Origin: a virus | Lineage: Duplodnaviria; Heunggongvirae; Uroviricota; Caudoviricetes | Virus record (IMG/VR): IMGVR_UViG_2579778535_000003 | Length of the DNA: 5,702 nucleotides | Reading direction: 5' to 3' (one strand) | Part shown: in pieces, positions 1,603 to 3,442 of the stretch | Position numbering within the stretch: the stretch's first letter is position 1 | Layout: every line of letters begins with the position of its first letter | Position numbers and translations under genes: made by a program | Notes under the pieces: generated by a model | Database searches by the model: none | The model's input: only the letters and a program-made list of their open reading frames with translations | Told to the model about the DNA's origin: nothing

Positions 1603-1725
1603 GCCTTTTTCCCTTTTCTGGTTAACGTGACATACCAATAACTCTTGTCGAAAAAGCCAGCAAGCTGAAAGACCAGTATTCGCAACCACCAGCGCGTTTA
1701 ACGTACTTCGCCGATTTTCGGGCAC

Positions 1726-1746
1726 AAAAAAACCGCTCATCGGCGG
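1726..1746 (-). terminator. Weak terminator-like hairpin on the minus strand (4-bp stem CCGC/GCGG, 6-nt loop, then U7)
   Basis: Plus strand aaaaaaa-ccgc-tcatcg-gcgg; on the minus strand the hairpin is followed by seven U. The stem is short, so the call is tentative. Shares a 13-nt core with the hairpin at 5556-5574. Confidence 0.3.
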
Positions 1747-1795
1747 GTTTAAGCTGTGTGGCGAAGTAACCACTCTTAACACGATACAATAATTT

Positions 1796-1824
1796 TTGCG
1801 TACGCGTTAGCGCTTTTGTATATT
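1796..1824 (+). promoter_or_regulatory. Sigma70-like promoter for the plus-strand two-gene operon
   Basis: TTGCGT (1796-1801), 17-bp spacer, TATATT (1819-1824), about 34 bp upstream of the ATG at 1858. The TTG at 1816 used by the ORF track lies inside this promoter. Confidence 0.5.
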
Positions 1825-1857
1825 CAGCTTAATCCTATGTATTTATGGAAAAATAAG

Positions 1858-2889
1858 ATGAGCAAGCGTGAAATCAAAACTAAAAAAATAATCTATAAAG
1901 AAGTCACAATGTCAGGTGTGTCAAAGACGCTCCAGTCGATGCTAATGGAGCTGCTCAAAAAACACACTAAAGCAGATTCTCGCAAGGAAATGGTCAACCC
2001 AGGAGAGGAAGACTTATTCCGATTAATTAATAAACATGAAGAGTTCCAGGGAATGCTGTTTTGCCAGCTTGTTGCCTTCGAACCAGGCCATTCTCAACGC
2101 TATATACAACTTAAAAATGATGCTGAATCTTATGAAATAAGATCCGTAACATCAGATGAACTTTCTAAAATGACTGTTGAAGAAGCTGAAGAAGCACGCA
2201 CAGAGAGGGAACAGGTTGTGCGTGAGTTTATAGATTCAATTCTTTATTTCGGTGTATTTGGTAACAGCATCGTAGTAATGCAATCCAGATCTCTTACAAC
2301 AAGAGAACTTGAAACACATCTGAAATGGTTACTTGGCTCTTTAAGCAATTACTTAGGCGCAGAAAACATCTTAAAAGTTTCCGATAAACCCAAAGAAGAG
2401 ATCATTGAGGAAGTTCTAAAACGACCTGTAAAATCAGTCTCTATAGGCGCACCTGTAACTGCCGTTAACGAATTGAGACAAGGAAGCAAAAGCCCAAGCT
2501 GGGTTCCCGCAGGAACTGCCTCTGAACTCCTTAAAGCTATGTTAGCAGAGAAATGGGAAAGCTTCTTACGTAGTAGCAAGCTTGAAGATTGTCTTGATGA
2601 CGCTAATCTTGAAGTAACACTGAAAATCACATACAAGAGGAAAACTTCTGATTCAGGAGAAAGGATGTTAAGAAATCTTGTTGACGCGACCAGACACTAC
2701 CCGGATGATGACGTCGTTGTTGAAATGGTTGGTGGGACGCGTTTAACAGGTAAAGAGATTCGTTTATGGAATACTGTTAAACTCACAACTTACAATAGCT
2801 TGATTGATGAACATGAACTATATGGCCAAATGCATGATTGGATGGTCGCTCTGATCAACAATGGAGAAATAGAAGAGACCGATGAATAG
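1858..2889 (+). CDS. Hypothetical soluble protein (about 343 aa), first gene of a two-gene cargo operon; candidate sensor partner
   Basis: Long ORF (track 1816..2889). Preferred start is ATG 1858, with GGAA 8 nt upstream and downstream of the promoter; ATG 1909 is an alternative. AT-rich, with many ATA/AGA/AGG codons. No Walker, HNH, HEPN or PD-(D/E)xK motif seen by eye. Stop overlaps the start of the next gene (ATGAATAG). Confidence 0.8.
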   Translation: MSKREIKTKKIIYKEVTMSGVSKTLQSMLMELLKKHTKADSRKEMVNPGEEDLFRLINKHEEFQGMLFCQLVAFEPGHSQRYIQLKNDAESYEIRSVTSDELSKMTVEEAEEARTEREQVVREFIDSILYFGVFGNSIVVMQSRSLTTRELETHLKWLLGSLSNYLGAENILKVSDKPKEEIIEEVLKRPVKSVSIGAPVTAVNELRQGSKSPSWVPAGTASELLKAMLAEKWESFLRSSKLEDCLDDANLEVTLKITYKRKTSDSGERMLRNLVDATRHYPDDDVVVEMVGGTRLTGKEIRLWNTVKLTTYNSLIDEHELYGQMHDWMVALINNGEIEETDE

Positions 2890-3421
2890 AGAGGCTGGTA
2901 AGCGCGTATTCTACCAACAACCAAGTAGAGCATTCCACTTGGTTGTTGTTGTATTGCTTATGTCTACAGCCTGGTTTGTCGCCAATAAGTACATCATTTT
3001 AACATCCATTCCTTGGGGCGTATTAACTATACTCATTTTACCAATTGCAAGCAGCGCAACCCTGTTTCATAAGTTATCTGAAACCCAAAAAAACGTTGCT
3101 GAGGATTTATCTCGCAATGAACAAAGAAGGTTAACAAGGCTTATTAAAGAAAAAAGCCGGGCTACATTATTCATGCTTACGCTACAAATTTCGATAATAA
3201 TTTTTGTGGCATTGATTAGCCTTGGCAATGAGTCCTCTTTTGTTCAACAGCACATTCATACTATAAGTGAATTCGTTGTTTGTGCTTTGGTTTTTTCACT
3301 ATACTCATTAATTCCAGTTTTACTAGGGGTAAAGGAAGTTATTGATTTTGAAGGATTAATAAAAACACGAAAAACATTAAACAAGCGTAAAAAATCTGCA
3401 TTATCCAAGCTTGGGAAGTAA
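2882..3421 (+). CDS. Small integral membrane protein (179 aa, four predicted TM helices); candidate membrane effector
   Basis: ATG 2882 overlaps the upstream stop by 8 nt, with ggagaaatagaagagacc upstream. Hydrophobic segments at about residues 18-36, 40-62, 94-115 and 128-150, a charged loop at 63-93 and a basic C-terminal tail (KTRKTLNKRKKSALSKLGK). Confidence 0.8.
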   Translation: MNREAGKRVFYQQPSRAFHLVVVVLLMSTAWFVANKYIILTSIPWGVLTILILPIASSATLFHKLSETQKNVAEDLSRNEQRRLTRLIKEKSRATLFMLTLQISIIIFVALISLGNESSFVQQHIHTISEFVVCALVFSLYSLIPVLLGVKEVIDFEGLIKTRKTLNKRKKSALSKLGK

Positions 3422-3433
3422 TCCAAGCTTGGG
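3403..3433. repeat. Tandem direct repeat of the 13-bp unit ATCCAAGCTTGGG, each containing the perfect 10-bp palindrome CCAAGCTTGG
   Basis: Copy 1 at 3403-3415 encodes the last codons of the membrane protein, spacer aagta contains its stop, copy 2 at 3421-3433 fills most of the 21-bp gap before the convergent Q stop at 3443. Because the unit is palindromic the two copies can also pair as a stem of about 10 bp. Confidence 0.6.
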
Positions 3434-3442
3434 TTCGCACTC

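Follow-up and report, generated by a model that had tools for sequence, protein, structure and literature searches.

Where does a phage keep its late promoter when other genes occupy the place beside its antiterminator gene? The question is raised by a 5,702-nt stretch of DNA from a Caudoviricetes virus (IMG/VR record IMGVR_UViG_2579778535_000003; hereafter the window), which the phage reads from right to left, i.e. on the minus strand. Its antiterminator gene, Q, faces two convergent genes, here called cargo A and cargo B, and the gap between the Q stop (3443) and the cargo B stop (3421) is only the 21 bp of 3422-3442, too short for any promoter to fit beside Q. We find that the minus-strand segment 1726-1810, on the far side of the cargo, is very probably the late regulatory unit (promoter pR', Q-utilisation site and terminator tR') of a QuuD-like antiterminator of the Q21/PF06530 family, parted from its Q gene by 1.66 kb of antisense cargo in a conserved insertion slot (Table 1).

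A preliminary description of this DNA had already pointed out the 21-bp gap and the lack of a promoter beside Q, had found none by eye, and had offered two places for it: displaced to about 1750-1860, or embedded in the 3' end of the cargo. A generic sigma-70 consensus scan is likewise blank, with no minus-strand site in 1603-1860; over the whole window it returned 9 sites against 7.3 expected from shuffles, which is chance level. The accompanying terminator scan, which picked up the hairpin at 1418-1401, likewise contributed nothing useful in 1603-1860. An Rfam search gave no match at the promoter region. Several weak -35/-10 pairs are arguable when the window is read alone, and these were dropped once comparison with relatives had fixed the register.

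We set that register by aligning the DNA upstream of the small open reading frame (ORF) that follows the non-coding interval. Five loci with a short PF06530 Q (Stx2_95, phiP27, L007, PSJ-22 and Stx2a_1447) have in common ...TAnnnT GTTAAGAGTGGTTACTTCGCCACACAGCTTAAA, a GC hairpin and a T-run. Two other loci, L005 with a 229-aa Q and L006 with a 273-aa Q, carry the same module of small ORF, methyltransferase and tRNAs, and their sequence upstream of the hairpin is unrelated; homology across all seven aligned loci starts at the terminator hairpin. What lies between promoter and hairpin thus goes together with the type of Q, the behaviour to be expected of pR' and a Q-utilisation site. Among the loci compared, the upstream part of this block is found only behind short PF06530 (QuuD-like) Q genes, and the window holds a single copy of its 28-nt core (minus strand, 1753-1780). 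This comparison and the K-12 start site described below place the -10 hexamer TATCGT at 1786-1781 and the start at 1774, within the displaced position that the preliminary description had proposed.

The block is conserved over 70 distinct sequences from more than 20 genera. TAnnnT stands at -12 to -7 in 68 of them, and the remaining two have CAGTAT, which keeps A2 and T6. Also conserved are GnTAAG-AGTG at -6 to +4, CAC near +15, CTTA near +22 and the terminator, and the core TAAGAGTG (-4 to +4) is near-invariant across genera. The 5' end of the predicted late RNA can form a hairpin, GUGGU-UACUUC-GCCAC, at +2 to +17 (1773-1758, minus strand): in 52 distinct sequences, 81% of the pairs are standard in this register as against 19-62% in shifted registers, and pair 5-14 is seen as G-C, G-U and A-U (the observed count is reached by 31 of 1000 shuffles).

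A transcript start has been mapped at a homologous locus. The DLP12 prophage of Escherichia coli K-12 has the order quuD, convergent nmpC, block (L008 6224-6277) and essD. Ahead of any start-site data, we predicted its start from the conserved -10 at L008 6230, which is NC_000913.3:577229 or about U00096.2:576452. The Cappable-seq list of Ettwiller et al. 2016 (PMC4782308, supplement 1) has a plus-strand start at U00096.2:576452, exactly the predicted base, an A 7 nt after TATGCT. The +777 coordinate offset was checked with 23 plus-strand starts of the region: 21 of the 23 fall on a purine and the -10 matches are maximal, as against only 7-15 starts on a purine at neighbouring offsets. The equivalent base in the window is A1774, and this is where we place its start. 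Taken with the conserved -10, the K-12 start argues, indirectly for the window, for a sigma-70 promoter with a defined start. The Term-seq tables of PMC7815308 have no 3' end near the DLP12 block. The primers of PMC7918800 were also considered as a source for the DLP12 start and set aside as ambiguous: the forward primer lies at L008 5754, and both '-121 to +650' and '-650 to +121' fit the amplicon. A separate, strong Cappable-seq start (read score 90) lies at L008 5859 (NC_000913.3:576858, plus strand). It points towards essD from just outside the nmpC start codon, 371 nt ahead of the pR'-like start, and is perhaps what studies of DLP12 have called essDp.

An RNA started at A1774 and terminated at tR' is about 48 nt long, with the T-run ending at +49. 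The hairpin at 1726-1746, which the preliminary description had called weak and offered as a tR'-like terminator in one of its two alternatives, has four G-C pairs and a T7 run on the minus strand, in keeping with that proposal. In three relatives that we folded, the core has 5-6 G-C pairs, A-U pairs extend the stem to 8-9 bp and a T-run follows; changes in loop and stem among relatives preserve pairing. The 53-nt leader of the window folds with -13.1 kcal/mol, compared with -13.9 for K-12 DLP12 and -18.9 and -22.0 in other relatives. The window reads GCGGT where all relatives except PSJ-22 read GCGGG, a loss of one G-C pair.

Between the -35 and -10 regions lies an 8-9-bp palindrome (-31 to -24) whose type matches the Q lineage without exception in 97 loci with many different intervening cassettes: GCGTACGC goes with the Q lineage of the window (18 loci, 10 gap sizes), GCGGTCCGC with the Stx2_95-like lineage (21 loci), ACGTACGT or ACGATCGT with the QuuD-like lineage (58 loci) and GGAATTCC with phiP27 (1 locus). 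The sequence of the element changes by lineage and is palindromic every time. Its position is that of the Q-binding element (QBE) of phage 21 pR', this upstream region has no second copy in the window, and the putative recognition helix of Q varies between Q lineages. The palindrome is a probable candidate for the Q-binding element, together with the adjacent A-tract.

Judged by its matches, Q itself is a short, QuuD-like member of the Q21 family. It matches PF06530 over its full length (Pfam, E 1.5e-45), falls in PHROG 79 ('anti-termination protein Q-like') and shares 46-57% identity with its counterparts in Stx2_95 and phiP27. Its start is the ATG at 3787; an upstream GTG at 3796 is also open. 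The match to the Q21 structures 6jnx and 6p18 is distant (E 0.006). Q21 binds direct TGAGCA repeats between -35 and -10 (PMC6606751; 10.1101/651190).

Aligned with pR' of phage 21, a comparison already named in the preliminary description and made here with the annotated record OL657228 (L129 coordinates), the window has the same plan with different sequences. Both have a Q of Pfam family PF06530, a Q-linked element between -35 and -10, a terminator that ends about 50 nt past the start, and tRNA and late genes downstream. However, Q21 has 162 aa and is only distantly similar to the Q of the window (E 0.006), its QBE consists of two direct TGAGCA repeats (ATTGAGCA AATGAGCA) rather than a palindrome and an A-tract, and its promoter has TTGACA as a consensus -35 and, at +2 to +7, TAAGCT as a clear pause element. 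Also, pR' of phage 21 begins 6 nt past the Q stop, whereas the -35 of the window is 1.63 kb away. Other papers on pR' of Stx phages (PMC6266700, PMC7547250, PMC8951638 and PMC4645166) deal, in the parts available to us, with other Q types or leave pR' unmapped, and these parts give no start site for this Q subfamily; the part of PMC7547250 available covers Q clades of 144 and 207 aa as well as the StxS RNA.

These elements suggest how the switch would operate. Sigma-70 RNA polymerase would start at about A1774, using the -10 (1786-1781) and the weak -35, and without Q would make an RNA of roughly 48 nt ending at the hairpin and T7 (1746-1726). Q, made from early transcripts, would bind the lineage-specific palindrome and A-tract at -31 to -17 (1805-1791) and then load onto polymerase held in the conserved initial transcribed block. 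The modified polymerase would pass tR' and then the second terminator (1418-1401) and go on to transcribe the small ORF, methyltransferase, tRNAs and late genes. The cargo would be transcribed away from pR' by its own promoter, converge on Q and end at the hairpin at 3403-3434.

We wondered whether the separation of Q from its promoter is peculiar to this phage, as the preliminary description had implied by treating the layout as exceptional. It is not. With the block as an exact query, IMG/VR yielded 120 loci, which were analysed by script; all of the 97 with enough upstream sequence have a QuuD-like Q upstream on the same strand. The distance from Q stop to block is 27-38 bp in loci without cargo and 525-3015 bp in the others, which hold about 24 different cassettes, nearly all antisense to Q. 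A second, independent survey used one genome per species and started from the Q protein instead of the block. It gave 58 loci, representing more than 20 genera, in which Q is followed by a block homologue; in 53 of them 0.6-2.9 kb of cargo lies between the two. Of the 93 cargo ORFs that reach 80 aa, 91 run antisense to Q. In the other five loci there is no cargo, and the promoter abuts or overlaps the end of Q. The cargo-free block starts 27-38 nt after the Q stop in E. coli phages (38 nt in Stx2_95) and -1 to 35 nt after it in other genera, so it sits just past Q, in the canonical place of pR'. Adjacency of pR' to Q, absent from the window (-35 at 1.63 kb from the Q stop) and from 53 of the 58 loci, therefore does not define the QuuD-like branch. 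The order of QuuD-like Q, antisense cargo, pR' block and late genes is the ordinary arrangement for phages with a QuuD-like Q; it is found in the window and is present in the K-12 genome. With a cassette inserted between Q and pR', the late switch comes to lie 1.66 kb downstream of Q.

The nearest systems show the same order with different contents. DLP12 (and phage PA-2 lc) have a Q of the same subfamily (QuuD is 48% identical to the Q of the window), the order Q, convergent cargo, block with terminator, and late genes, and a 28-nt core that differs by one base. They differ in that the DLP12 cargo is a porin gene interrupted by IS5 rather than a RexAB-like pair, the palindrome is ACGTACGT, and the lysis genes come directly next, without the small ORF, methyltransferase and tRNA module. 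Phages Stx2a_1447 (AP012536) and Stx2a_WGPS2 (AP012537) are closer: they share Q, the two cargo genes, block, small ORF, methyltransferase and tRNAs, with 92% DNA identity over window positions 2-3782. Here the differences are other genes upstream of Q, stx2 after the tRNAs, and a stronger tR' hairpin with a stem of five G-C pairs.

Several observations weigh against our reading. The -35 of pR' (TAACGC) is poor and the site was missed by the generic promoter scan. The start was transferred from the homologous K-12 locus, not from this strain, and the K-12 start has a low read score of 1.7, near the minimum of the published list. No hexamer with A2 and T6, as in a sigma-dependent pause element, occurs at +1 to +12 (TTACTT at +6 to +11 is without A2); TAAGAGTG straddles the start, and the mechanism of Q loading may differ from that of phage 21. 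The match between Q lineage and palindrome could come partly from co-transfer of the 3' half of Q with adjacent DNA and not from binding specificity. The tR' stem of the window is degenerate, cut to four G-C pairs by a G-to-T change, and the late terminator of this prophage may be leaky. Finally, in work attributed to Rueggeberg et al. (2013, 2015), QDLP12 is said to be a positive regulator of essDp, with RpoE implicated, which fits poorly with plain sigma-70 antitermination.

The last of these points leads to an improbable alternative in which the block is a regulatory site without Q antitermination, for example a promoter that depends on RpoE or is activated by Q, as has been proposed for DLP12 essDp, with the hairpin as an attenuator under other control. 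The weak -35 would suit it. So would the overlap of the -35 region, the expected contact site of an activator or of a protein resembling sigma region 4, with the element that co-varies with Q. The fold of Q21 resembles sigma region 4 (10.1101/651190), and the Q of the window has, besides PF06530, a weak Pfam match to Sigma70_ECF. The canonical pause element was not found either. Yet the protein is clearly a PF06530 Q, the promoter, leader of about 48 nt, intrinsic terminator and late genes match phage 21 point for point, and A2 and T6, the key bases for sigma-70, are both present in the conserved -10, from which the K-12 start is 7 nt downstream. We also looked for an RpoE-type promoter in GGTTACTT...TTAAA and rejected it, since by our own reading its spacing does not fit the RpoE consensus. 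Even less probable is that the locus is a decayed remnant in which Q and block have become uncoupled and a weak terminator allows constitutive downstream expression from pR'. The tR' stem one G-C pair short of its relatives and the occurrence of the same layout in the defective prophage DLP12 speak for decay, but Q is full length and 86-100% identical to the Q of 18 other loci whose blocks are intact, the same cassette in the same layout is found in the inducible Stx2a-converting phages Stx2a_1447 and WGPS2, and a second, stronger terminator stands at 1418-1401.

The other place named by the preliminary description, a Q-dependent late promoter and Q-utilisation site on the minus strand within the 3' end of the cargo (at about 2900-3442) from which antisense transcription would silence the cargo in lytic growth, is hardly credible. 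The Q stop is indeed just 21 bp from the cargo, and cargo B has promoter-like minus-strand matches at 3228-3200 and 3194-3166; these, however, are at chance frequency in an AT-rich gene (9 found, 7.3 expected). The block occurs only at 1753-1780, and nothing like it or like the palindrome is found inside the cargo. At least 10 gap sizes with unrelated cassettes follow the same Q lineage, hence there is no conserved Q-adjacent Q-utilisation site, and many cassettes have a bidirectional terminator directly past the Q stop. If pR' lies at 1726-1810, as we favour, any antisense RNA across the cargo would have to originate in early transcription that continues past Q, not at pR', and would not depend on Q.

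Table 1 Features of the window and of the phage 21 late promoter region (phage 21 positions in L129 coordinates).
Feature	Position	Strand	Remark
DUF968 protein	4161-5207	-	
RusA	3777-4148	-	
Q antiterminator, 114 aa	3443-3787	-	Pfam PF06530
Hairpin at cargo B stop/Q gap	3403-3434		13-bp direct repeat ATCCAAGCTTGGG, self-complementary core CCAAGCTTGG
Cargo B, 179 aa	2882-3421	+	ORF list
Cargo A, 343 aa	1858-2889	+	ORF list
Non-coding interval, 255 bp	1603-1857		
Predicted cargo promoter	-35 TTGCGT 1796-1801; -10 TATATT 1819-1824; start about A1831	+	17-nt spacer; read from sequence
pR' weak -35-like TAACGC	1809-1804	-	
Palindrome GCGTACGC	1805-1798 (-31 to -24)	-	proposed Q-binding element
A-tract	1797-1793 (to -19)	-	proposed Q-binding element, with palindrome
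pR' -10 TATCGT	1786-1781	-	register fixed by comparison with relatives
Predicted late start A1774 and 27-nt initial transcribed block AGTGGTTACTTCGCCACACAGCTTAAA	1774-1748	-	
tR' intrinsic terminator	1747-1726	-	stem CCGC/GCGG (1746-1743 with 1736-1733), 6-nt loop, T7 1732-1726
Leader independent of Q type	1603-1725	-	first sequence downstream of tR', before small ORF
Small TrmB-like ORF, 65 aa	1405-1602	-	weak Pfam TrmB match, E 0.0026; PHROG 331
Second terminator-like hairpin	1418-1401	-	6-bp stem, then TTTTTTATTT; directly after small ORF; conserved in relatives
DNA methyltransferase	205-1254	-	Pfam N6_N4_Mtase; PADLOC MTase_II
Two tRNA genes	80-155 and 2-78	-	ARAGORN; Rfam tRNA
Phage 21 Q	L129 1444-1932		
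Phage 21 -35 TTGACA	L129 1939-1944		
Phage 21 QBE	L129 1947-1962		ATTGAGCA AATGAGCA
Phage 21 -10 AACACT	L129 1962-1967		
Phage 21 start	L129 1974		
Phage 21 pause element TAAGCTG	L129 1975-1981		
Phage 21 terminator end	L129 2023		tRNAs, then lysis genes downstream

For work on phages with a QuuD-like Q, some Stx2a-converting phages included, these results mean that the late promoter for the lysis genes and stx2 should be sought past the antisense cassette and not beside Q. The pR' signature of the subfamily, TAnnnT-GnTAAGAGTG followed by a terminator, gives exact coordinates for reporter and deletion constructs. In annotated Stx phage relatives, stx2 comes after the module of small ORF, methyltransferase and tRNAs.

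The cargo appears to have a promoter of its own, read from the sequence at 1796-1831. Its predicted start is 57 bp from that of pR', and the promoters, which stand back to back, overlap. In 60 of 98 distinct upstream regions, most of them belonging to the Q lineage of the window, unrelated cargo is preceded by this -35, TTGCGT, with an A2/T6 hexamer 16-18 nt on, and regions with TTGCGT have a start-to-start distance of 55-58 bp. At the other end, the hairpin at 3403-3434 takes in the stop of cargo B and the greater part of the 21-bp gap. As RNA it folds on the plus strand into a 12-bp stem (-21.8 kcal/mol, z -5.35), with no adjacent T-run on that strand, and on the minus strand into a 10-bp stem (z -3.34). 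It occupies the place directly 3' of the Q stop where many other cassettes have a bidirectional terminator or GC hairpin, and could serve as a 3' stabiliser or as a weak bidirectional terminator, or be the scar of a cassette junction.

Cargo A is predicted to be a soluble protein with a RexA-like fold. Its family has 28 clusters, mostly from Enterobacterales, and no Pfam domain; searches of PADLOC, Pfam and PDB sequence profiles gave no match to it, nor any relation to RexA at the level of sequence. Cargo B has four hydrophobic segments in a hydropathy scan, our only evidence on its topology, and a RexB-like architecture; it falls in PHROG 16807 (function unknown), has a sub-threshold Pfam match to DUF3169 (E 0.0044) and no PADLOC match. 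In Providencia prophages a homologous pair stands directly after cI, the position of rexAB in phage λ. There are also differences from λ RexA and RexB: neither cargo protein has detectable sequence similarity to them, RexA has 279 aa as against 343 in cargo A, and the module of the window sits in the slot between Q and pR' rather than in the immunity region. An exclusion function is putative here. RexB has 144 aa and cargo B 179. The predicted fold would make cargo A a member of a previously unrecognised RexA-fold family.

The cassettes found in the same interval elsewhere suggest that it is a slot of wider use. Their PADLOC matches include KwaB of Kiwa (E 2e-150), PDC-S20, PDC-M53A, NsnA/PD-T4-2, a HEC-04-like ATPase and PDC-M68A (L014, L108, L119, L126, L100, L034 and L008 are the loci with such interval cargoes, almost all of which are antisense to Q), and the porin gene nmpC fills the interval in DLP12 (L008). 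One Dcm-like methyltransferase adjoins the NsnA/PD-T4-2-like protein and another adjoins the HEC-04-like ATPase; both were identified by reading the sequence only. On these matches the interval between Q and block looks like a defence hot spot, and the survey suggests a widespread slot for cargo such as Kiwa, PDC-S20, PDC-M53, an NsnA-like protein with a Dcm-like methyltransferase, and porins. We found no specific description of a defence hot spot between Q and pR' in the literature searched, although the search was limited and one may exist.

A more far-reaching proposal, which we think rather unlikely, is that the interval is a built-in antisense expression slot for defence cassettes across Enterobacterales. 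The resident region would supply the cassette with its -35 (TTGCGT), which overlaps the palindrome and the pR' spacer, and occupancy of pR' by polymerase, and above all Q loading, would shut the cassette off once the prophage entered its own late phase. If so, the very structure of the slot would switch the prophage from 'defend the lysogen' to 'make phage'. The slot and the RexA-fold family are testable leads; the standard picture of Q antitermination is unchanged by either.

Downstream of tR', the module of small TrmB-like ORF, methyltransferase and tRNAs occurs behind three Q families (PF06530 proteins of 114-127 aa, and proteins of 229 and 273 aa). When L005 and L006 are compared with window positions 1405-1725, the recombination break of the module falls exactly at the terminator. 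In L005, genes for a Ser/Thr kinase and a PP2C phosphatase also separate Q from the module; they have the orientation of Q.

The minus-strand tRNA at 80-155 is called tRNA-Met (CAT) by ARAGORN and annotated as ileZ or tRNA-Ile in relatives; it is probably a lysidine-modified tRNA-Ile2. At the other end of the window, positions 5557-5637 on the minus strand have a weak Rfam match to the Salmonella prophage small RNA isrK (25.3 bits, where the gathering score is 50; E 0.02), and this stretch overlaps a terminator-like hairpin upstream of a 90-aa ORF at 5209-5481.

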